Assembly: GCA_947570695.1 (NCBI GenBank)
Contig: CANOVB010000005.1
Coordinates: 67,487-131,486, forward strand
DNA: 64,000 nucleotides
DNA from: an uncultured Clostridium sp.
GTDB taxonomy: Bacteria > Bacillota > Clostridia > TANB77 > CAG-508
Direction: 5' to 3'
The notes beneath the pieces are model-generated. The model did no database searches, was not told where the DNA came from, and saw nothing but the letters and a program-made list of their open reading frames with translations. Numbering within the stretch: position 1 is the stretch's first letter; each line of letters opens with the position of its first letter. Made by a program: the position numbers and the translations under genes. This document shows, in pieces, positions 4,732 to 44,087 of this stretch.

Positions 4732-6288
4732 TTGAAAAAAATAGAAATTACCGATTTTTTTAAAGGAATAATATCATTAGTAATATCTCAAATTCTTATA
4801 AAAATTTTTGGAGTTATTTATAGTTTATATATAACAAATAAAAATGGATTTGGAGATGAAGGAAATGCTATATATATGAGCGGATATCAGATATATGCAT
4901 TATTACTTACAATATCTTCTATTGGAGTTCCGAATGCAATTTCTAAAATTATTTCGGAGAAAAAATCCATAAAAGATTACACAAATTTAGAAAGAATATT
5001 CAAAATATCAGTATTTGTTTTTGCAGTAATTGGATTTTTTGGAACAGTTACATTATTTATTTTTTCTGGTTTTATTGCTGAAAACATTTTACAAATACCA
5101 GAAACAAAATTGAGTTTAATGGTTTTATCGCCAGCAATATTTTTTGTTTCAATAAGTTCTGTTGTTAGAGGATATTGCAATGGAGAGAATAAAATATATG
5201 TTACAGCCAAATCGCAGTTTTTTGAACAAATAATCAAATCAGTATTAACAATTACACTTGTAGAAATATTATCAAGATTTCCAAATTCAAATACAGAAAT
5301 TTTAGCTGCAATCGCAAATTTTGCAACAACTTTAGCGACTTTTTGTAGCCTAATGTACATATTAAAAAAGTATAGAAAAATAAAAAAACAAAATATATAT
5401 TTAAGTAAATATAATTTTCCTAAAGAAAGAATATTTACTATAATAAGAAAAGTTTTGATAATATCAATTCCTATGACTACAAGTGCTATTTTAACATCAT
5501 TAGGAAAAAATGTTGATTCTGTTACAGTAGTTAGAATACTTAAAAATATTTTAGGAGAAGAAACTGCAATTATAAAATATGGAATATTAAGTTCTAAAGT
5601 GGATATATTAATAGCATTACCATTATCATTTAATATTGCAATTTCAACAGCGTTAATACCAGAAATATCCAGAAAGAAGGCAATTAATGATATATCAGGA
5701 ATAGTAAAAAAAATAGAAACTTCTATATTAATTACTATTATAATAGGAATACCATCTACATTTGGAATGTGTTTTTATTCTGAGCAAATTTTTGATTTAT
5801 TATATCCAAGAGCAAATGAAGGAGCAATTTTACTTAGCATAGCATCTTTTAGTATAATATTTTCATTACTTGTACAGACTATAAATGGAATCCTTCAAGG
5901 TCTGGGGAAAAATAATGTACCAGTTTTAGCATCAGTAATTGGATTATTAGTAAAAATATTTTCTAATATAATATTAATAAGAGTAGAGGGAATATATGAA
6001 AAAGGAGCAATTATAGGAAATATATTATCAAATATAGTTTCATTTATAATTGTATATATTGCATTAATAAGAAATATTGATATAAAATTAAATTTGCTTA
6101 AAAAAGGGATAAAACCTATTTTAGCAAGTGCGATTATGATATTTTTTTCATTAAAAATATATAATTTTTTAGTATTAAAAAATATAAATATTAATATTTG
6201 TACAATAAGTTCTATTTTCTTTGCTATACTAATTTATATTTTTTGCTGCTTTTTTATGAAAATTTTAAAGAAAAATGAAATCTCGTGA
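4732..6288 (+). CDS. spoVB: MOP-superfamily polysaccharide/lipid II flippase (SpoVB/MurJ-like)
   Basis: 518 aa with about 14 predicted TM segments. TTG start preceded by GAGAGAGGGAAAG. Size and architecture are typical of SpoVB in spore formers; the symbol is tentative. Confidence 0.6.
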   Translation: MKKIEITDFFKGIISLVISQILIKIFGVIYSLYITNKNGFGDEGNAIYMSGYQIYALLLTISSIGVPNAISKIISEKKSIKDYTNLERIFKISVFVFAVIGFFGTVTLFIFSGFIAENILQIPETKLSLMVLSPAIFFVSISSVVRGYCNGENKIYVTAKSQFFEQIIKSVLTITLVEILSRFPNSNTEILAAIANFATTLATFCSLMYILKKYRKIKKQNIYLSKYNFPKERIFTIIRKVLIISIPMTTSAILTSLGKNVDSVTVVRILKNILGEETAIIKYGILSSKVDILIALPLSFNIAISTALIPEISRKKAINDISGIVKKIETSILITIIIGIPSTFGMCFYSEQIFDLLYPRANEGAILLSIASFSIIFSLLVQTINGILQGLGKNNVPVLASVIGLLVKIFSNIILIRVEGIYEKGAIIGNILSNIVSFIIVYIALIRNIDIKLNLLKKGIKPILASAIMIFFSLKIYNFLVLKNININICTISSIFFAILIYIFCCFFMKILKKNEIS

Positions 6289-6470
6289 AAGCCTTATAAA
6301 TAGCAGACAAACCGGAAAAAAATTCTTAAAAAAGCTGAAAAATAAGTAAATTTTTCAAAAAAAAATAAAAAAAAGAAGGATTTTAGCACATTTTGGCGAA
6401 TAAAAATATTGTAGAACAAATTAATAGATATTCTACATAACACTAAAATCTATTAGGAGGTAATTTTAAA

Positions 6471-6749
6471 ATGAACAAAGCTGAATTAATCGCAGCAATA
6501 GCTGCAAAAACAGGAGAAACAAAAAAATCTGCAGAAGAATCTGTAAACGCATTTGTTAGCGTAGTAACAGAATCTTTAACAAAAGGTGAGAAAGTTCAAT
6601 TAGTTGGATTTGGATCTTTTGAAGTAAGAAAAAGAGCAGCTAGAAAAGGAAGAAACCCACAAACTAAAGAAGAAATCAAAATACCTGCATCAAAAGCTCC
6701 AGTATTTAAAGCTGGAAAAGCATTAAAAGATTTAGTAAATAAAAAATAG
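6471..6749 (+). CDS. hup: DNA-binding protein HU
   Basis: [11 protein letters not shown]...[42 protein letters not shown] is the canonical HU/IHF signature. AGGAGG RBS. Confidence 0.97.
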
Positions 6750-9180: not shown

Positions 9181-9322
9181 TTAATGTTTTAAGAAGAAGT
9201 ATCCACTTCTCACCTTATCTTAAGTTAAGAGCATAAGGTTAGAATTTAAATAGTTATGATTAATATAATTATTGGAATTAGTATGTGGATTTGGCTTTTT
9301 AAAATAAGTCAAATTTTTTTTT
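9181..9322 (+). promoter_or_regulatory. L20 leader-like attenuator upstream of infC
   Basis: Nested hairpins agaagt/acttct and accttat..cttaa-g-ttaag..ataaggt. A terminator atttggctt(9289-9297)/aagtcaaat(9306-9314) plus T9 sits immediately before the infC RBS. Position and layout match the Firmicute L20-controlled leader. The family assignment was not checked with a covariance model. Confidence 0.55.
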
Positions 9323-9333
9323 GGAGGTGTTTT

Positions 9334-9846
9334 ATTATAAAACAAGAATTGCCTATAAATAGACAAATAAGAGAAAAAGAAGTTCAAGTAATTAGTGATA
9401 CAGGAGAAAAATTAGGAGTTCTTTCTTTAGATGCAGCATTAGAGCTTGCAGAAGAAAAGAATTTAGATTTAGTATTAGTTTCACCAAATGCAAGTCCAGT
9501 AGTTTGTAAATTAATGAACTATGGAAAATACAAATTTGAACAAGCTAAGAAAGAAAAAGAGTCTAGGAAGAATCAAAAAACTGTTGAATTAAAAGAAATA
9601 AGGGTTACTCCTAATATAGGAGACCATGACTTTGGATTTAAAAGTAAAAATGCTAGAGCTTTTTTAGAGGCTGGTAATAAAGTAAAATTTACTGTTAGAT
9701 TTAGAGGAAGAGAATTAAATAATGTTAAAGCTGGTGAAACAGTTTTAAATAAATTTGTTGAAGATTTAGCTGATATTTCAACAGTAGAGAAAAAGCCATT
9801 TTTGGAAGGTAAGACAATGTTTGTAATTTTAACAAAAAAAATATAA
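9334..9846 (+). CDS. infC: Translation initiation factor IF-3 (ATT start codon)
   Basis: ATT at 9334 lies 6 nt after GGAGG (9323-9327). An AUU start is the conserved autoregulatory feature of infC. IIKQELPINRQIREKEVQVI...VCKLMNYGKYKFE is typical IF-3. The ORF-track extension back to 9256 is hydrophobic nonsense. Confidence 0.93.
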   Translation: MIKQELPINRQIREKEVQVISDTGEKLGVLSLDAALELAEEKNLDLVLVSPNASPVVCKLMNYGKYKFEQAKKEKESRKNQKTVELKEIRVTPNIGDHDFGFKSKNARAFLEAGNKVKFTVRFRGRELNNVKAGETVLNKFVEDLADISTVEKKPFLEGKTMFVILTKKI

Positions 9847-9870
9847 AAAAATGTGAAGGGAGATTTCAAA

Positions 9871-10074
9871 ATGCCAAAATTAAAAACAAACAAGGCTGCA
9901 AGTAAGAGATACTCTTATACAGCTAAAGACAAAGTAAAAAGAACAAAAGCTAATAGAAGACATCGTTTAGCTACAAAAACAACAAGACAAAGAAAAACAG
10001 GAAAAATTCAAAATGCATATGCAGATAAAACTGTAGAAGCAGGAATTAAAAGATTATTACCATATGGTAACTAG
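9871..10074 (+). CDS. rpmI: 50S ribosomal protein L35
   Basis: MPKLKTNKAASKRY... ATG 9871 follows GAAGGGAG. The track start at 9853 (GTG) is unlikely. Confidence 0.93.
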   Translation: MPKLKTNKAASKRYSYTAKDKVKRTKANRRHRLATKTTRQRKTGKIQNAYADKTVEAGIKRLLPYGN

Positions 10075-10107
10075 GATTAAATTTAGGATAGAAGGAGTTG
10101 AAAATAA

Positions 10108-10458
10108 ATGGCAAGAGTAAAAACAGCAAGAACAACAAGAGCAAGACATAAAAAAGTATTAAAACAAGCAAAAGGATACTATGGAGCAAAACATTATAGA
10201 TTTAGAAATGCTAAACAAGCAGTTATGAAATCTGGAATGTATGCTTATGTAGGAAGAAAAGATAAAAAATCAGATTTTAGAAAATTATGGATAGTTAGAA
10301 TTAACGCAGCAGCTAGAATGAATGGATTAACATACAGCAAAATGATAGCTGGACTTAAAAAAGCTAATGTAACAATAAATAGAAAAATGTTAGCAGAAAT
10401 AGCTGTTTCAGATAGCAAAGCCTTTGCAGAACTTGCAGAGATTGCTAAAAAAGCATAA
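10108..10458 (+). CDS. rplT: 50S ribosomal protein L20
   Basis: [28 protein letters not shown]... is canonical L20. Confidence 0.97.
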
Positions 10459-10524
10459 AATTAAAAAGTAAATTTGGTAAAAAAATCAAAGGTTATTAAA
10501 AATAATTTTTGATTTTTTTTAATA

Positions 10525-10553
10525 TTGCAAAAATGCCTAGAGTGATATATAAT
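10525..10553 (+). promoter_or_regulatory. Sigma-A type promoter of leuS
   Basis: TTGCAA (10525-10530), 17-nt spacer, TATAAT (10548-10553). It follows the rplT terminator aaaatcaaa...tttgatttttttt. Confidence 0.55.
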
Positions 10554-10589
10554 AAAAAACATCATAATAAAGAAAAGGGAGAGAAAGCT

Positions 10590-13502
10590 ATGGGATATAA
10601 TTTTAAAGAAGTAGAAGAAAAATGGCAAAAAAAATGGTATGAAGAAGGAACTTTTAATGCAAAACAAGATTTTACAAATAAAAAGAAATGGTATGGATTA
10701 ATAGAATTTCCTTATCCATCAGGGCAAGGTCTACATGTAGGACATCCAAGATCTTATACAGCATTAGATATTATTGCAAGAAAGAAAAGAATGGAAGGAT
10801 ATAATGTTTTGTATCCTATTGGTTTTGATGCTTTCGGACTCCCAGCTGAAAATTATGCTATTAAAAATCATGTTCACCCAAAAATAACAACAGAAAATAA
10901 TGTAAATCATTTTAGAGAACAATTAAAATCTTTAGGATTTTCTTTTGATTGGTCAAGAGAAGTAAATACAACAGATCCAGAATATTATAAATGGACACAA
11001 TGGATTTTTATTCAATTATATAAACATGGATTAGCTTATAAAGCTACTATGCCAATTAATTTCTGTACTGGTTGTAAAGTTGGATTAGCAAATGAGGAAG
11101 TTGTTAATGGTGTTTGCGAAAGATGTGGAAGCCCAGTAGTGCAAAAAGAAAAATCACAATGGATGCTTAAAATAACAGAATATGCTCAAAGATTAATTGA
11201 TGATTTAGATGATATAGATTATTTAGATAAAATAAAAGCTCAACAAAAGAATTGGATAGGTAGAAGTGAAGGGGCAGAGGTTAATTTTAAAGTTGCCTCT
11301 GATGAAGATATTATATTTAATAAAGATTCAAAAGTAGAGAAAATTAATTCTAGTGAAAATGATTCTTTATTAATTTATACTACTAGACCAGATACAATAT
11401 TTGGAGCAACATATATGGTTGTAGCTCCAGAACATGAATTAATAAAAAAATATGCAGATAAAATTACTAATTTATCAGAAGTAGAAGAATATAAGAAAAA
11501 AGCTGCTTTAAAATCTGATTTTGAAAGATCAGAGTTAAATAAAGAAAAAACTGGTGTTGAAATTAAAGGACTTAAAGCAATTAATCCATTAACAAATGAA
11601 GCTATTCCAATTTGGATTTCTGATTATGTTTTAATTACTTATGGGACAGGTGCTATTATGGCAGTTCCTGCACATGATGATAGAGATTTTGAATTTGCAA
11701 CTAAATTTAATTTACCTATAAAACAAGTTATTGCACCAGTATTTTATGGAACAGGAGATTCAGAAGTAAGACCAGATAAGAAAAATACAGAAAGAAAAGT
11801 CATTAATGTAGTTGTAAAACATCCAACAGAAAAAAAATTCTTATGTGTAAACAATGATAAATTTGGATTTAAGAATTTTGTTATGGGTGGATTTGAAGGA
11901 GAAGAAACGCCAGTAGAAGCAGCAGCTAGAGAGCTTAGAGAAGAAACTGGTTATACTGATTTTAGAGTGGATTATGTTTTTGATTTTATTTATAAATCAA
12001 AATTTTATGCTGCACATAAAGATGTAAATAGAGATATTACTTGTTATACTGTTGCTGTAACTTTAAATTCATTAAAACAAGAAAAAGTATCAGAAGAAGA
12101 ACAAAAAATTCAATATCCAGTATGGGTAAATGCAGATAAATTAAATGAATATTTAACAACAGAAGAACATATATACACATATTCATTATATGAAAAACCT
12201 CAAGCCTTTACAGATGTTGAAAAAGGAGTTGCTATAAATTCAGATTTCCTAAATGGATTATCTTCAAAAGAAGCTATAAAAAAGGCAACAGATTATATTG
12301 AAGAAAAGAAATTAGGAGAAAGAAAAGTAAATTATAAATTACGTGATTGGGTATTTTCTCGTCAAAGATATTGGGGAGAGCCAATACCAATGGTATATTG
12401 CGAAGATTGTGGCTGGAATCCAATTAAAGAAGAAGAATTACCACTCGTACTTCCAGATATAGAAGATTATGAACCGGGAGAAAATGGAGAGTCACCTTTA
12501 GCAAAACAAACAGAATGGATAAAAACAAAATGTCCATGTTGTGGTAAGGATGCTAAAAGAGAAACAGATACAATGCCACAGTGGGCAGGTTCTTCATGGT
12601 ATTTCCTAAGATATATGGATGCTCATAATAAAGAAGCTTTGGCTTCAAAGGAAGCATTAGAATATTGGTCACCAATAGATTGGTATAATGGAGGAATGGA
12701 GCATACAACACTTCACTTATTATACTCAAGATTTTGGCATAAATTTTTATATGATATTGGTGTTGTTCCAACAAAAGAGCCATATCAAAAACGTACTTCA
12801 CATGGTATGATTTTAGGTGGAAATGGTGAAAAAATGTCTAAATCAAAAGGAAATGTTATAAATCCTGATGATATAGTTAAAGAGTTTGGTGCAGATACTT
12901 TTAGAGTATATGAAATGTTTATGGGACCTTTTGATCAAACAGCACCATGGTCTATGGAATCTATTAGAGGATGTGGCAAATTCTTAGATAGAGTATGGAA
13001 TATGCAAGATATTTTGGTAGACGGAGATGAATATTCTAAAGAGCATGAAAAAATGATGCATAAAGCTATAAAAAAAGTTACTTCAGATATTGAGGAAATG
13101 AAATTTAATACTTCAGTTGCAGAATTTATGAAAATGACAAATGAATTTTATAAGGATAAAAAGATTAATAAGGCAGAATATAAAACATTTTTACAATTAT
13201 TAAATCCATTTGCACCACATATGACAGAAGAATTATTTAATATTCTAGGAGAGACTAAGACAATAAATGAAACACCTTGGCCAAAATATGATGAAGCTAA
13301 AACTATTGATGATGAAATAGAAATACCAGTACAAGTAAATGGAAAGGTAAAAGCTGTTATTACTGCTAATAAAGAAGCTTCTCAAGAAGAAGTTAAGGCT
13401 ATAGTAGATAGTAATGAAATAATTAAAAATGCTTTGGCAGGAAAAAATGTAGTAAAAGAAATTTATGTAAAAGGAAAAATATACAATATAGTAGTTAAAT
13501 AA
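10590..13502 (+). CDS. leuS: Leucyl-tRNA synthetase carrying an internal Nudix-domain insertion (11733-12227)
   Basis: Start is ATG 10590 ([16 protein letters not shown]) after AAGGGAGAG. HIGH-type [13 protein letters not shown], two CxxC...CxxC zinc knuckles, and the editing-domain blocks [19 protein letters not shown] and [14 protein letters not shown] Nudix box [23 protein letters not shown] lies at 11886-11954. Confidence 0.95.
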
Positions 13503-14673: not shown

Positions 14674-14700
14674 TATTTTTAAAAAATAAAGAAACTTTAT

Positions 14701-14734
14701 AAAATAAAAAACGCGGGGGCGGAAAACCGCCCCC
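14701..14734 (-). terminator. GC-rich rho-independent terminator at the end of island 1
   Basis: gggggcgg-aaaa-ccgccccc (14715-14734) followed on the minus strand by a U-run (plus-strand aaaataaaaaa 14701-14711). Confidence 0.85.
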
Positions 14735-14821
14735 AACATGGTTTGAAGATTGCAATAGTAAGGGATTTGAAAGTGCTAATTTACCGTAATCCGAAGTGCC
14801 AGCATGTGAACATCACGAACG

Positions 14822-16099
14822 TTACGTGATATTCAATGTTTTGCCGTTGGTCAAGACCACTTGTGTTACGAGTCCCAATTTGTTGGTGTTGAAGCTCGCA
14901 GCGTCGTAACAGAACCGATAGCCGTCCTGAGGGCGGTCATAGATGGAACTGACGAACACCTGATTATCCCTGATATAGCAGAACTGCTTATCAGAGATGA
15001 AGCCGAAAGCGGTGATGTTTGACATGTACCACCCTGTATAGATTCTCGAGGCGATAATCGTCCCATTGAGATACAGGGAGCCGTCTGTAAGCATCAGAGT
15101 GTTGCTTTCAACTGTGCCCTTGGTGTACAAGGTAGCATAGGTGTCCTTTACGACAGCGTAGGTTTCCTTAGCAATCCACTTGTCGTTTGTGGAGGTGAAT
15201 TGCTTCAGGGTGTAAGTGGACTTCTCTGTAACGATTTCCGAGAGGAAACCATTGCTGTCAGTCCTGAAGGTCTTGAACTTGCTGTCCAGGGTAACCTTCT
15301 CCGCAGAGTACCAGTTTCCGAAAGTGAAACGGTACAGAGTACCATTGCTTTCGTAGAGGTACACGTTGTAGCTGGTATCGAATCCCAAGAATTTAGCACC
15401 CTTAAGGGTGTCGGACAGCCGGACGCCGTGAGTTGCATTGAGAACGCTCTTTTCGTCTTTGCTCACAATGATGGAAACCTTCAGGTTGCCAAACTCGTAA
15501 GCGTTACGAACGAACTCGCTCTCAGCGTTGGTGTACATTTCAACACGGCTGGTGTTATTTCCCGGCCTCTGAGGAACAGAAGGCTGAGAAGGCTGGCTGG
15601 GTTGAGACGGCTGGGAAGGCTGAGTCGGCGTACTGGGAACGGTGCTACCAGTAAGAGACTGGTTACCACTTGTGGTTTGCACCGAAGTTGCCAGATCGTC
15701 GCTGTTGTAAAGCAGACATGTTACGCCAGAAGCGTACCAAGTCGATTGCTTACCATCGCTTCCAACGCTAATCAGTGCACCAGCGCTGGTGACGTAGAAG
15801 AAATCGCCATTTGTGGCAAAGCCGTTGTAACGGGAACCGGAGCCAGCAGAGTTGCTCGCAAGAACGGTTCCATTGTTGTTATACACGGTGCTGCCGATGC
15901 TGTAAAAGCTTTTGCTGGGAACGTGGGCGTCCTGCCGGCGGTCATAGGTGTACAGCTTGTACCAGGTGCAGCCCGAGGAGGCGTCATCATAGGTAAAGCC
16001 GTACGGCGCTGTGTCGGCGGTCGTGGCGGCGAAAGCAGTGGGGCAGACCCCAAAGAAGCAGCACACAACCAGGAACAATGCGATCAAAGATTTTTTCAT
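14822..16099 (-). CDS. Secreted two-domain protein of unknown function with a (PSQ)n linker; GC-rich and foreign in composition
   Basis: Start is ATG 16099 (MKKSLIALFLVVCCFFGVCPTAFA|ATTAD, a signal peptide) after GAAAGG. The linker is PSTPTQPSQPSQPSQPSQPSVPQRPG. GC3-rich codons differ from all neighbouring genes. Confidence 0.8.
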   Translation of the reverse strand: MKKSLIALFLVVCCFFGVCPTAFAATTADTAPYGFTYDDASSGCTWYKLYTYDRRQDAHVPSKSFYSIGSTVYNNNGTVLASNSAGSGSRYNGFATNGDFFYVTSAGALISVGSDGKQSTWYASGVTCLLYNSDDLATSVQTTSGNQSLTGSTVPSTPTQPSQPSQPSQPSQPSVPQRPGNNTSRVEMYTNAESEFVRNAYEFGNLKVSIIVSKDEKSVLNATHGVRLSDTLKGAKFLGFDTSYNVYLYESNGTLYRFTFGNWYSAEKVTLDSKFKTFRTDSNGFLSEIVTEKSTYTLKQFTSTNDKWIAKETYAVVKDTYATLYTKGTVESNTLMLTDGSLYLNGTIIASRIYTGWYMSNITAFGFISDKQFCYIRDNQVFVSSIYDRPQDGYRFCYDAASFNTNKLGLVTQVVLTNGKTLNIT

Positions 16100-16247
16100 G
16101 TTAGTCAACCTTTCTGTGTTAAAATAAATCTTCAAAACCATGTTAGTTCAACAAATAGCCAAAAGGTCAGCTAAATAAAGTTGAACATCAAATCCCATAA
16201 AATCATTATAGCACAAACTAGTAAAAAAGGCAAATTTATGTAAAGCT

Positions 16248-37195: not shown

Positions 37196-37435
37196 CATAG
37201 TAAAAAAGGCGTTTGATTAAGAATTAAGTAGTAAATAAACTTTTTAAAAGAGAGCTTATGGTTGGTGAGAATAAGTAAAAGAATTTACGAAATCTACTCT
37301 TAAGAGTTTCTAGAAAACTAGACCGAGTTATTGCAGGTTATAGCAATTTGAAAGATGGATTAGATTAATCTAAAAAAGGTGGTACCGCGATATATTCGCC
37401 CTTATGTATTTTTTACATGGGGGCGTTTTTGTTTA
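37196..37435 (+). promoter_or_regulatory. T-box leader, probable Ser (UCU) specifier
   Basis: T-box sequence aaaaaaGGTGGTACCGCG (37372-37389). Terminator cgcccttatgta-ttttt-tacatgggggcg plus T5 (37397-37430). Stem-I AGAGA and GGTGAGA elements. The specifier-loop candidate is GAAA-TCT-A (TCT at 37293-37295). serS is the third gene downstream. Confidence 0.85.
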
Positions 37436-43599: not shown

Positions 43600-43788
43600 A
43601 GAATAGGGTGTAAGCTAACTTAATATGATTACTGGTTAAAAATCTGTTATAGTATTGCTACTATTTTTTTTCTTAACCTATGGTAGTAATTACCACTAGA
43701 GCATCCGCCGAATCTTTCGATAACTCTAGACCTCGTCAACTATTTTTAAAATTTATATGTATAAAAATTTTAAAGTAGTCCTGGCGCT
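43600..43788 (-). ncRNA. glmS ribozyme
   Basis: The minus strand reads A|GCGCCAGGACU...GACGAGGUCUAGAGUUAUCGAAAGAUUCGGCGGAUGCUCUAG. This matches the conserved core AGCGCCAGAACU...GACGAGG...GUUAUCGAA..UUCGGCGGAUGCC directly upstream of glmS. The 3' limit is approximate. Confidence 0.9.
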
Positions 43789-44087
43789 AACCTTTGTTTT
43801 AAATAATATACTCCTTTCTAAACTTTTGCTTACAAACTAGAAATTAAAAATTTTTTCTAGTAACCTATTTCTTTTATATAATATTCGAATTTTTTTAAAA
43901 TGTCAATATTATTTTTTGGATGTTAATGAATGTATATATATAAATGCATTCTAAATATTGAGGCTCTAAGAATTAAAATTTAAATAATTCTGGTAAAACA
44001 TTGCTAAAAGGAAATAAATATTCTTTACATGAAAAAGTAATTATAATATAATAGCTATGTATTAAAAATAGATTGGAATTGGTATGT

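Follow-up and report, generated by a model that had tools for sequence, protein, structure and literature searches.

A Nudix hydrolase domain nested in the CP1 editing domain of a bacterial leucyl-tRNA synthetase

Accessory enzyme domains on aminoacyl-tRNA synthetases are known mainly from eukaryotes, and ApnN compounds formed in the synthetase side reaction are removed in trans, by NUDT2/HINT1 in the case of mammalian LysRS and by ApaH or RppH, with Np4A caps also involved, in E. coli. The logic that we propose below for a leucyl-tRNA synthetase (LeuRS) of an uncultured Clostridium sp. is the same, but the hydrolase, a separate protein in those circuits, is here covalently built into the synthetase, and its activity is putative. 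A precedent for curated fusions is the IleRS with a GNAT domain (NCBIfam NF040702, ileS_w_GNAT); compared by family listing, it likewise joins a class Ia synthetase to a small-molecule-modifying domain, but the enzyme class and the host synthetase differ, as presumably does the insertion site. In bacteria CP1 has been viewed as an inserted domain, never as a host, and a 2026 survey recorded zero host events for PF13603; our full-text literature search found no published description of a LeuRS-Nudix architecture.

The leuS gene and its inserted domain

In the window, meaning the whole 64,000-nucleotide stretch of DNA that was analysed, leuS and its surroundings comprise the following features:

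9256..10458, + strand: infC, rpmI and rplT, upstream of leuS (open reading frames)
10590..13502, + strand: leuS coding sequence, bacterial-type LeuRS, 970 aa plus stop (open reading frame, TIGR00396, PDB matches)
10734..10745, + strand: HIGH-type class I signature HVGH, aa 49-52 (sequence reading; invariant in the relatives' alignment)
11247..11732, + strand: N-terminal part of the CP1 editing domain, aa 220-381 (PF13603, motifs)
11379-11396, + strand: T-rich motif TTRPDT in CP1 (invariant among 13 relatives)
11661-11687, + strand: AVPAHDDRD, aa 358-366, holding the conserved editing Asp (invariant among 13 relatives)
11733..12203, + strand: inserted Nudix domain proper, aa 382 to about 538, a 20-aa N-terminal leader followed by an alpha/beta/alpha Nudix fold (PF00293, model, Foldseek, DNA breakpoints)
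11886..11954, + strand: Nudix box GX5EX7REUXEEXGU, aa 433-455 (sequence reading; all fixed positions matched)
12003..12032, + strand: subfamily signature of 10 residues, aa 472-481, 17-26 residues past the Nudix box (kept in many LeuRS inserts, in the stand-alone proteins and in a ProRS insert)
12204..12335, + strand: native linker and C-terminal remainder of CP1, about aa 539-582 (aligns with insert-less orthologues and with Thermus LeuRS from 378 onward)
12831..12845, + strand: KMSKS catalytic loop, aa 748-752 (sequence reading; invariant in the relatives' alignment)

Consistent with the preliminary description, which was made from the sequence alone, leuS is one uninterrupted gene: a single unbroken + strand open reading frame runs over 10509-13502, the ATG at 10590 (MGYNF...) gives a protein of 970 aa, and this protein scores 994.8 bits against TIGR00396 (leuS_bact; cut-off 548.4). 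Its top PDB matches are the Thermus and E. coli LeuRS (1H3N and 4AQ7), with which it shares the HIGH, KMSKS and T-rich motifs, the editing Asp, and the anticodon-binding and C-terminal domains, and PF13603 matches aa 220-384 with 191.7 bits (profile positions 1-143 of 185). As predicted from its sequence the enzyme is otherwise normal, its catalytic and editing motifs being intact. Two differences from Thermus LeuRS stand out, namely a missing leucine-specific domain (a gap opposite Thermus 591-636) and a Nudix domain of ~155 aa in place of the 14-residue loop that follows AVPAHDxRD. The gene order infC-rpmI-rplT-leuS is common to two insert-less loci (L075, L076) and an insert-bearing one (L077), and an Rfam search ahead of leuS found neither a leader nor a riboswitch.

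The conserved LeuRS blocks on either side of the insert, PIKQVI at aa 376-381 and a second block at aa 542-551, had been said to lie normally close together, and this is indeed so: they are 14 residues apart in Thermus thermophilus LeuRS (1H3N, 363 to 378) and 19-50 aa apart in close insert-less relatives. The 165-aa extra segment previously placed between them (aa 382-546) is present, but its last ~8 residues (AFTDVEKG) are native LeuRS, since insert-less relatives carry them as well, and the acquired piece is thus about aa 382-538. DNA alignment with syntenic insert-less orthologues sets the junctions between I381 and A382 and between Q538 and A539.

Within this piece the Nudix box was found at the reported position with every fixed residue as claimed, and the suggested profile search of aa 382-546 was positive, PF00293 scoring 43.1 bits on the excised segment and 38.8 bits on the whole protein (aa 407-525) against a gathering score of 21.1. 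The expectation of a full Nudix fold in the editing-domain loop was likewise borne out by an AlphaFold model of the insert alone (pLDDT 91.6, pTM 0.85), for which the top 50 PDB matches in Foldseek were all Nudix enzymes with probability 1.0. Because the Pfam score, the perfect box and the AlphaFold/Foldseek fold agree, we conclude that CP1 carries, nested in one of its surface loops, a complete and self-contained Nudix module of ~155 aa. The AlphaFold model of full-length LeuRS had a pTM of 0.44, with pLDDT below 50 across most of the Rossmann core and 82-93 in the CP1 N-terminal stretch, probably due to a shallow LeuRS alignment; it was too poor to show where the Nudix active site points and was left out of the inter-domain geometry. 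An intein, or another self-splicing or mobile protein insertion, was considered and rejected: the 970-aa protein has no Hint or homing-endonuclease Pfam match, and a search of the junctions for terminal repeats and target duplications yielded only short repeats at chance level.

The nearest solved structure is 2AZW of E. faecalis, which has no assigned function (profile E-value 2e-13). With this and other small stand-alone Nudix enzymes (YmfB/NudJ, the Aquifex Ap4A hydrolase 3I7U, CT771 and RppH) the inserted domain shares fold and box (TM 0.6-0.8, probability 1.0), but identity is only 14-26%, and the domain has its own signature, a 20-aa leader and an embedding in a synthetase. Stand-alone members from Saccharibacteria (P0001-P0055, ~160 aa) are 50-57% identical over the whole insert, and they begin (MAKEFFGTGDSAIRPDK...) and finish where the LeuRS inserts begin and finish; they are, however, free genes directly upstream of thrS and miaA, whereas the insert lies within leuS. 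The subfamily signature, which recurs in inserts from many loci as well as in the stand-alone proteins and a ProRS insert, probably corresponds to the X-loop, the element through which Nudix enzymes contact the substrate (PMC5389931).

Distribution and history of the insert

The preliminary description implied that the architecture is rare, and in this it was mistaken, for we found it in dozens of species-level genomes and in about 100 clusters at 50% identity. Of 64 related loci in species-representative genomes, which were found via peptide patterns such as EETGYTDF, 57 have a single long LeuS open reading frame with a Nudix domain at the same site. The same 970-aa protein, letter for letter, was retrieved from NCBI, ENA and Logan alike, with as many as 22 contigs carrying members. 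One could envision an artefact of assembly or annotation, whereby a contig is chimeric or two separate genes have been merged into one, and the far ends of two short ENA fragments that contain this junction (P0056, P0058) are in fact chimeric. Against this, the frame is unbroken, base composition does not shift at the junctions, the same protein occurs in several independent assemblies, and the architecture recurs in 57 genomes and in about 100 clusters of proteins; the chance that the fusion is such an artefact is negligible.

The subfamily is small, an exhaustive search of 1.84 billion representatives giving 309 matches at E<=1e-3, and among the best 150 of these 309 about 97 are LeuRS (91 by blastp and 6 fragments by Pfam). 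The LeuRS carriers have three insertion zones and one to three Nudix copies. ProRS carriers comprise P0287 (TIGR00408, 585.8 bits) and the fragments P0255, P0282 and P0361, and several Saccharibacteria contigs encode stand-alone copies 70-120 bp ahead of thrS, which is followed by miaA. The subfamily thus appears to be almost exclusively tied to aminoacyl-tRNA synthetases. Word-indexed searches with the insert or with a profile of 32 insert sequences brought up little besides the stand-alone proteins of ~160 aa and missed the LeuRS-embedded copies, the window protein included, so fusion counts were taken from the representative search and the genome scan. The hosts are low-GC gut Bacillota and many Patescibacteria (CPR); loci from Gracilibacteria and Peribacteria read through only under genetic code 25.

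Because the genome loci had been picked by box-like peptide patterns, the proportion with an intact box (54 of 58 pattern-found loci) is biased by the search, and box conservation was re-measured on an unbiased representative set of 166 domain copies. The metal-binding and catalytic glutamates are retained there at a rate of about 98% (E16 in 159, E19 in 157 and E20 in 159 of 161 scorable positions), and E7 to Q or R15 to A changes in the box are found in about a third of domain copies. For the insert dN/dS is 0.15-0.24, compared to 0.16 for the LeuRS backbone; dS is near saturation (0.9-1.0) when the window is compared with L001, L002 and L006. Judged by these ratios the insert is under purifying selection, which, along with the conserved glutamates, makes it highly probable that the domain is catalytically competent.

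Syntenic orthologues ~90% identical to the window LeuRS have no Nudix insert, and DNA alignment of their linkers disclosed clean breakpoints and no Nudix remnant. Insert similarity is uncoupled from backbone similarity, different Nudix subtypes occupying the same loop of related LeuRS backbones. The domain is, as far as sequence comparison can tell, dispensable and cassette-like, and its accessory status follows from the close orthologues that occupy an equivalent genomic setting and do without it. Repeated loss within the crown clade is the history favoured by the backbone tree. A transfer of the cassette to or from the L006 lineage is also apparent.

Substrate and role of the nested domain

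None of the curated Nudix equivalogs searched (MutT, RppH, YtkD, NudB, NudE and NudI) came anywhere near its cut-off, and no substrate-specific signature was matched. An identity as MutT 8-oxo-dGTPase (NF008044; 22.4 bits, cut-off 148) or as an RppH or YtkD RNA pyrophosphohydrolase (NF001936-8, TIGR02705; 20-26 bits, cut-offs 116-154) was therefore rejected. In the putative X-loop a conserved F/Y lies 17-18 residues past the box, with H/K and R after it; Ap4A/ApnA Nudix hydrolases have a conserved X-loop tyrosine downstream of the box (PMC5389931), the spacing rule for the Ap4A type being loose. The Ap4A hydrolases 3I7U, 4MPO and 1F3Y are among the structural and profile neighbours, no nearer than MutT1, YmfB, RppH and ADP-ribose pyrophosphatases, and these neighbours and the X-loop residues hint, weakly, at ApnA.

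The preliminary description proposed Ap4A turnover, clearance of mis-activated adenylates or alarmone coupling. Some role tied to the synthetases is reasonably probable, because the same Nudix subfamily occurs in ProRS and beside thrS. The association with ProRS and thrS does not single out Ap4A, and the other enzyme domains inserted in related LeuRS (Ham1, HAD and alpha/beta-hydrolase, see below) fit house-cleaning equally well. We infer that an active hydrolase is held on the synthetase, where its targets would most likely be adenylyl side-products of aminoacylation, that is, dinucleoside polyphosphates such as Ap4A or Ap3A, or Np4-type RNA caps that would form from aminoacyl-AMP and a nucleoside triphosphate; the domain would destroy these side-products at their place of origin. 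A substrate of the ApnN type is a possibility that we regard with some doubt, and a synthetase-tethered, active Nudix enzyme clearing adenylyl by-products such as Ap4A is the best overall explanation, which we put forward tentatively. Counting against it are the ~90% identical orthologues that manage without the domain and the nearest structure, 2AZW, being without an assigned function. LeuRS is not known to rank with the strongest producers of Ap4A. Clearance of aminoacyl-adenylates by the Nudix domain is chemically unlikely, because Nudix enzymes cleave pyrophosphate bonds and not the acyl-phosphate bond.

The main rival to the clearing of adenylyl by-products is general house-cleaning of the nucleotide pool, in which a MutT- or ITPase-like activity would dispose of damaged or non-canonical NTPs and LeuRS, as an essential, constitutively expressed protein with insertion-tolerant loops in a small genome, would be a mere carrier with no chemical coupling to aminoacylation. 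Related LeuRS contain Ham1/ITPase (P0248), HAD_2 (L040) and alpha/beta-hydrolase (L034) inserts, in L077 the fusion leuS is immediately followed by an NTPase_I-T (ITPase) gene, the host lineages have reduced genomes, and the structural neighbours include YmfB/NudJ, MutT1 and NudI, all of which would suit a carrier. A pure carrier, however, leaves unexplained why the subfamily is almost confined to synthetases or their neighbourhood (LeuRS, ProRS, thrS) rather than shared with other essential proteins, and with the MutT model so far below its cut-off (22 bits against 148) we consider house-cleaning unlikely. Still less probable is an RNA-directed enzyme, a 5'-end pyrophosphohydrolase or decapping activity (RppH-, YtkD- or Dcp2-like) acting on synthetase-bound tRNA or other RNA. 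YtkD and RppH give the best, though weak, NCBIfam matches, RppH, BdRppH, Dcp2 and AvrM14 are PDB neighbours, the stand-alone genes sit in a tRNA-related thrS-miaA neighbourhood, and ASCH, an RNA-associated domain, is co-inserted in the LeuRS of L014 and L056; but the YtkD and RppH scores are 5-6 fold under the family cut-offs, resemblances in fold of this kind are common to small Nudix enzymes in general, and the 5' ends of mature tRNAs are monophosphates made by RNase P.

Alternatively, the hydrolase could confer immunity tethered to the target, inactivating nucleotide toxins that mimic aminoacyl-adenylates, with cassettes exchanged under conflict-driven selection. This could account for the patchy, cassette-like spread, the replacement of subtypes at one site and the copy number of one to three, and it would agree with LeuRS, ProRS, ThrRS and IleRS being classic targets of natural inhibitors and with the existence of an NCBIfam model (NF040702) for GNAT-bearing IleRS. 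Known adenylate mimics, however, have sulfamoyl or phosphoramidate links and not pyrophosphates, and PADLOC produced only a marginal generic Nudix match (PHROGs likewise gave generic Nudix matches only), so immunity of this kind is improbable. A broader version, by which the Nudix family has repeatedly colonised synthetase genes and is swapped as a cassette because it serves as a target-tethered protection module, destroying either alarmones and cap precursors made by the synthetase (Ap4A, Np4N) or adenylate-mimicking toxins at the threatened active site, is quite unlikely, if slightly less so. Finally, the insertion could be selfish or neutral, or a structural or regulatory ligand-binding module without catalysis useful to the host, as its dispensability in close relatives, the incongruent histories of insert and backbone, the E7 and R15 changes in about a third of copies, and the DUF559 endonuclease-like domain that fills the same LeuRS loop in P0271 might suggest. 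The low dN/dS of the insert, its three nearly invariant catalytic glutamates, a window protein with no intein or homing-endonuclease signature, and junctions with no terminal repeats or target duplications argue to the contrary, and we give this reading only a slender chance.

Implications

In contrast to the survey's zero host events for PF13603, CP1 here hosts a second enzyme domain, and in both the candidate phyla radiation and gut Bacillota the Nudix subfamily seems to be all but confined to synthetases and their immediate gene neighbourhood. Automated annotation labels these proteins plain leucine--tRNA ligase, masking a putative second activity. Should Ap4A-type products be its substrates, the domain would offer a direct and simple experimental handle on the long-standing question of whether dinucleoside polyphosphates made by synthetases are by-products to clear or signals to adjust, and natural controls with and without the domain, ~90% identical, are already at hand. 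If it is instead a house-cleaning enzyme, it would show small-genome bacteria packing maintenance enzymes into essential proteins, and should the protection-module reading prove true, it would represent a new principle in the translation machinery of CPR and gut bacteria, the policing of metabolites or toxins on the enzyme itself.

A Nudix module within the editing domain of LeuRS

We found that a single open reading frame of the window encodes a 970-aa protein whose match to the NCBIfam equivalog of bacterial leucyl-tRNA synthetase (LeuRS) reaches 994.8 bits (cut-off 548.4) and in which Pfam recognizes class I catalytic, editing (CP1, PF13603), anticodon-binding and NUDIX domains.

Features of leuS and of the rest of the window
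nt 10509-13502, +: leuS open reading frame, with the 970-aa protein starting at the ATG at 10590
aa 220-384: LeuRS editing domain PF13603, profile positions 1-143 of 185 (Pfam)
aa 407-525: NUDIX domain, 38.8 bits vs gathering score 21.1 (Pfam)
aa 433-455, nt 11886-11954, +: Nudix box
nt 37203-37406, +: T-box leader (Rfam)
nt 43624-43799, -: glmS ribozyme (Rfam)

The excised 165-aa segment alone reaches 43.1 bits on the Pfam NUDIX model. Alignment to Thermus thermophilus LeuRS (1H3N) breaks at window residue 382 (chain 363) and restarts at 543 (chain 378), so the insert takes the place of a 14-residue editing-domain loop immediately after AVPAHDxRD. The single frame, both NUDIX scores and this loop position confirm the proposal of the preliminary description that a Nudix segment lies within the LeuRS editing region; the Nudix box is where it had been placed, but the 165-aa segment then delimited was slightly too long, its last ~8 residues (AFTDVEKG) being native LeuRS. 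Base composition is even over both junctions. The editing motifs, HIGH and KMSKS do not vary among relatives, whether these carry the insert or not, and judged by this conservation the host LeuRS looks fully functional. Unlike the Thermus enzyme, it has no counterpart (region of nt 12831) of the leucine-specific domain (chain residues 591-636), the alignment jumping from 590 to 637.

An AlphaFold model of the insert alone (42 homologues) has a mean pLDDT of 91.6, a pTM of 0.85 and the strand-helix-strand pattern typical of the Nudix fold; in the full-length model the editing and Nudix domains have pLDDT 82-96, with a low-confidence Rossmann core (pTM 0.44). The leading Foldseek PDB matches to the insert model are all Nudix enzymes: 2AZW of Enterococcus faecalis ranks first (TM 0.73/0.82), ahead of YmfB/NudJ, Aquifex Ap4A hydrolase, MutT1, RppH and CT771. 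2AZW, which also leads a profile search of PDB sequences (E = 2e-13), is listed as functionally undetermined in a comprehensive Nudix review (PMC5389931), and none of the curated functional models for MutT, RppH, YtkD, NudB, NudE and NudI comes near its cut-off for the insert.

The three glutamates of the REUXEE core hardly vary across 166 domain copies from an unbiased set of representatives (159/161, 157/161 and 159/161), and the commonest departure from the box is E7->Q co-varying with R15->A. Seven database proteins (P0245, P0266, P0276, P0305, P0306, P0322 and P0364) have G->W in the box (e.g., WWVEENES...EETWY), which fits genomes using UGA as glycine (code 25) translated with UGA read as Trp. 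In comparisons of the window with the genome loci L001, L002 and L006, dN/dS was 0.15-0.24 for the insert, and with L001 and L002 it was 0.16 for the backbone (LeuRS minus the insert), values that are rough with dS near saturation.

An assembly or annotation artefact was excluded. A public collection contains the identical 970-aa protein from NCBI, ENA and Logan sources; seven proteins make up its 90% cluster, and one of these occurs on 22 contigs, the longest of 234 kb. When one genome per species was scanned with peptide patterns taken from the insert, 64 loci emerged, 57 of which carry the Nudix domain at the same position inside one long LeuS frame (737 to 1224 aa). Four Gracilibacteria and Peribacteria loci (L049, L060, L061 and L063) read through only under genetic code 25, which is independent evidence that these genes are genuine.

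Two ENA contigs of ~820 bp (proteins P0056 and P0058), 86% identical to the window at the LeuS-Nudix junction and with unrelated far ends, one of them a biotin-synthase-like BATS domain, look like chimeras. The LeuS-Nudix frame of L037, a Clostridium sp. MAG (CP091739.1, 4802-7471), is in pieces through frameshift, pseudogene formation or sequencing error. Elsewhere in the window, the stretch 14700-16141, with G+C up to 0.46 as compared to ~0.2-0.3 around it, contains a 439-aa frame (14822-16141, -) with a signal-like N-terminus and PSQPSQPSQ repeats; the Rfam scan of the window gave no match ahead of leuS.

Synthetase hosts and cassette-like distribution of the insert

With the insert as query, an exhaustive HMMER search through 1.84 billion representatives (50% clusters) matched no more than 309 proteins at E<=1e-3, of which 122 reached E<=1e-10, indicating a small, distinct subfamily. 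Among the best 150 of the 309, LeuRS sequence adjoins one or both Nudix flanks in 91, Pfam identifies six further LeuRS fragments, and ~38 are stand-alone proteins of ~160 aa.

Positions of the 157 domain copies classified
CP1 loop as in the window: 82
Second zone near the CP1 entry (window residues ~207-260): 16
Third zone (residues ~600-655): 5
Prolyl-tRNA synthetase (ProRS): 1
Stand-alone: 38
Unclassified: 15

Some LeuRS (e.g., P0217, P0218, P0220 and P0222) carry two or three copies, with three NUDIX stretches in P0218 by Pfam. In the ProRS, P0287 (TIGR00408, 585.8 bits vs 437), the anticodon-binding and C-terminal domains flank a Nudix domain of the same type, which has the FYAVHKDVNR signature; P0255, P0282 and P0361, likewise ProRS, align to P0287 over the Nudix junction. 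The stand-alone genes nearest the window insert are 50-57% identical to it, with termini exactly matching those of the inserts. On several independent Saccharibacteria contigs, a stand-alone gene precedes thrS by 70-120 bp, with miaA after thrS:

L065/L066, 6001-8340: Nudix, thrS, miaA
L072, 5001-7353: Nudix, thrS, miaA
L009, 464-2811: Nudix, thrS, miaA
L010, 5962-8341: Nudix, thrS, miaA

The LeuRS and ProRS inserts and this adjacency tie the subfamily to three synthetases, of both classes.

The window backbone shares 89-92% identity with LeuRS of 806-865 aa in which a variable linker of 19-50 aa is all that occupies the site, as compared to only 76-81% with most other Nudix-bearing LeuRS. Because the order infC-rpmI-rplT-leuS-YgjP-SpoVA is common to the window, L075 and L076 (without insert) and L077 (with insert), the insert-free genes are true orthologues. 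In a neighbour-joining tree of 128 backbones, all basal positions are Nudix-bearing and the crown clade is mostly without the insert, the exceptions being the window, P0060 and P0066; this topology favours repeated recent loss in the crown clade. DNA alignment of the window with insert-free orthologues shows clean breakpoints and no Nudix remnant, so the insert may also have been regained.

Backbone and insert identities of pairs from the wider set
Window vs L006: backbone 57%, insert 76%
Window vs L043: backbone 78%, insert 32%
L011 vs L041: backbone 78%, insert 28%
L033 vs L042: backbone 81%, insert 33%
L043 vs L048: backbone 51%, insert 68%

Insert and backbone similarity are thus uncoupled over the wider set, the window-L006 identity peaks at residues ~321-500 in a sliding comparison, and the stand-alone branches in a tree of 220 domain copies are dispersed among embedded ones. 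The uncoupled identities and scattered stand-alone forms indicate that this one loop has repeatedly received, or exchanged, different Nudix subtypes. As to mechanism, the window protein has no Hint or homing-endonuclease signature and no flanking repeats were found at the junctions. A 34-nt direct repeat, 74% identical (11774-11807 and 12302-12335), lies off the breakpoints, encodes DKKNTERKV (Nudix leader) and EKKLGERKV (native LeuRS), and is probably due to chance in purine-rich sequence. The window editing domain has a second variable spot (nt 11247-11400, aa ~237-261), whose 25-aa segment is absent from P0060 and P0109 and reaches 43 aa in P0067 and P0068; the same spot serves other lineages as a Nudix or ASCH insertion zone.

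Possible role of the tethered domain

The CP1 domain of this intact LeuRS thus houses an intact Nudix module that is under selection and comes from a synthetase-dedicated subfamily. LeuRS, ProRS and ThrRS have aminoacyl-adenylate chemistry in common. In a side-reaction, ATP or another NTP attacks the aminoacyl-adenylate to give Ap4A or Ap4N, and LysU reportedly caps RNA with Np4; Nudix enzymes make up a main class of both asymmetric ApnA hydrolases and Np4 decapping enzymes. One could thus envision the domain as an active pyrophosphohydrolase held at the synthetase, where it would hydrolyse adenylyl by-products of aminoacylation. The X-loop of the subfamily has a conserved aromatic-H/K-R, which would be compatible with an ApnA/Np4 hydrolase. 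We rank this reading first, though tentatively, as one possibility among several. A Nudix enzyme is unlikely on chemical grounds to hydrolyse mis-activated aminoacyl-adenylates, another role suggested in the preliminary description.

Alternatively, the domain could sanitize the NTP pool generally, with LeuRS as a mere carrier. In Patescibacteria, related LeuRS carry further domains beside the Nudix domain and act as a hub of hydrolase insertions, of which several are of nucleotide house-cleaning type:

L040, 4840-8373, LeuS aa 541-695: HAD_2 phosphatase (FDFDGVIGNT motif), directly after Nudix in the same CP1 loop (Magasanikbacteria)
L034, 4846-8289, aa 608-718: alpha/beta-hydrolase
L014 and L056, aa ~251-353: ASCH domain
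P0248, aa 984-1167: Ham1/ITPase
P0271, aa 366-468: DUF559 (Vsr-like endonuclease)

The L040 editing domain thus houses two hydrolases in tandem. The Ham1, HAD and ITPase associations speak for NTP-pool sanitation, but restriction to synthetases is less well explained by it, and we regard this main rival as rather unlikely. Less probable readings are RNA-end processing, a module for toxin immunity and an insert that is selfish or structural. In L077, the closest fusion-bearing relative, an NTPase_I-T gene (ITPase/XTPase-type; 6019-6537) lies between the fusion leuS and the YgjP-like gene and is missing at the corresponding place in the window and in insert-free orthologous loci.

Novelty and significance

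LeuRS and Nudix domains both belong to known families, and a full-text literature search found no description of their combination, which is one case of a synthetase bearing an accessory enzyme domain. The Nudix clan review (PMC5389931) never mentions tRNA or synthetases, and a 2026 domain-insertion survey counts zero host events for the LeuRS editing domain, which it lists as insertion-exclusive. In contrast to IleRS with a GNAT domain, LeuRS with Nudix has no dedicated NCBIfam model. Because the architecture appears in precomputed Pfam annotations, it is undescribed rather than undiscoverable. A whole Nudix subfamily dedicated to synthetases is of interest beyond this single gene, as is its behavior as an exchangeable cassette, and its function is directly testable on natural pairs, ~90% identical, of which one member lacks the domain.
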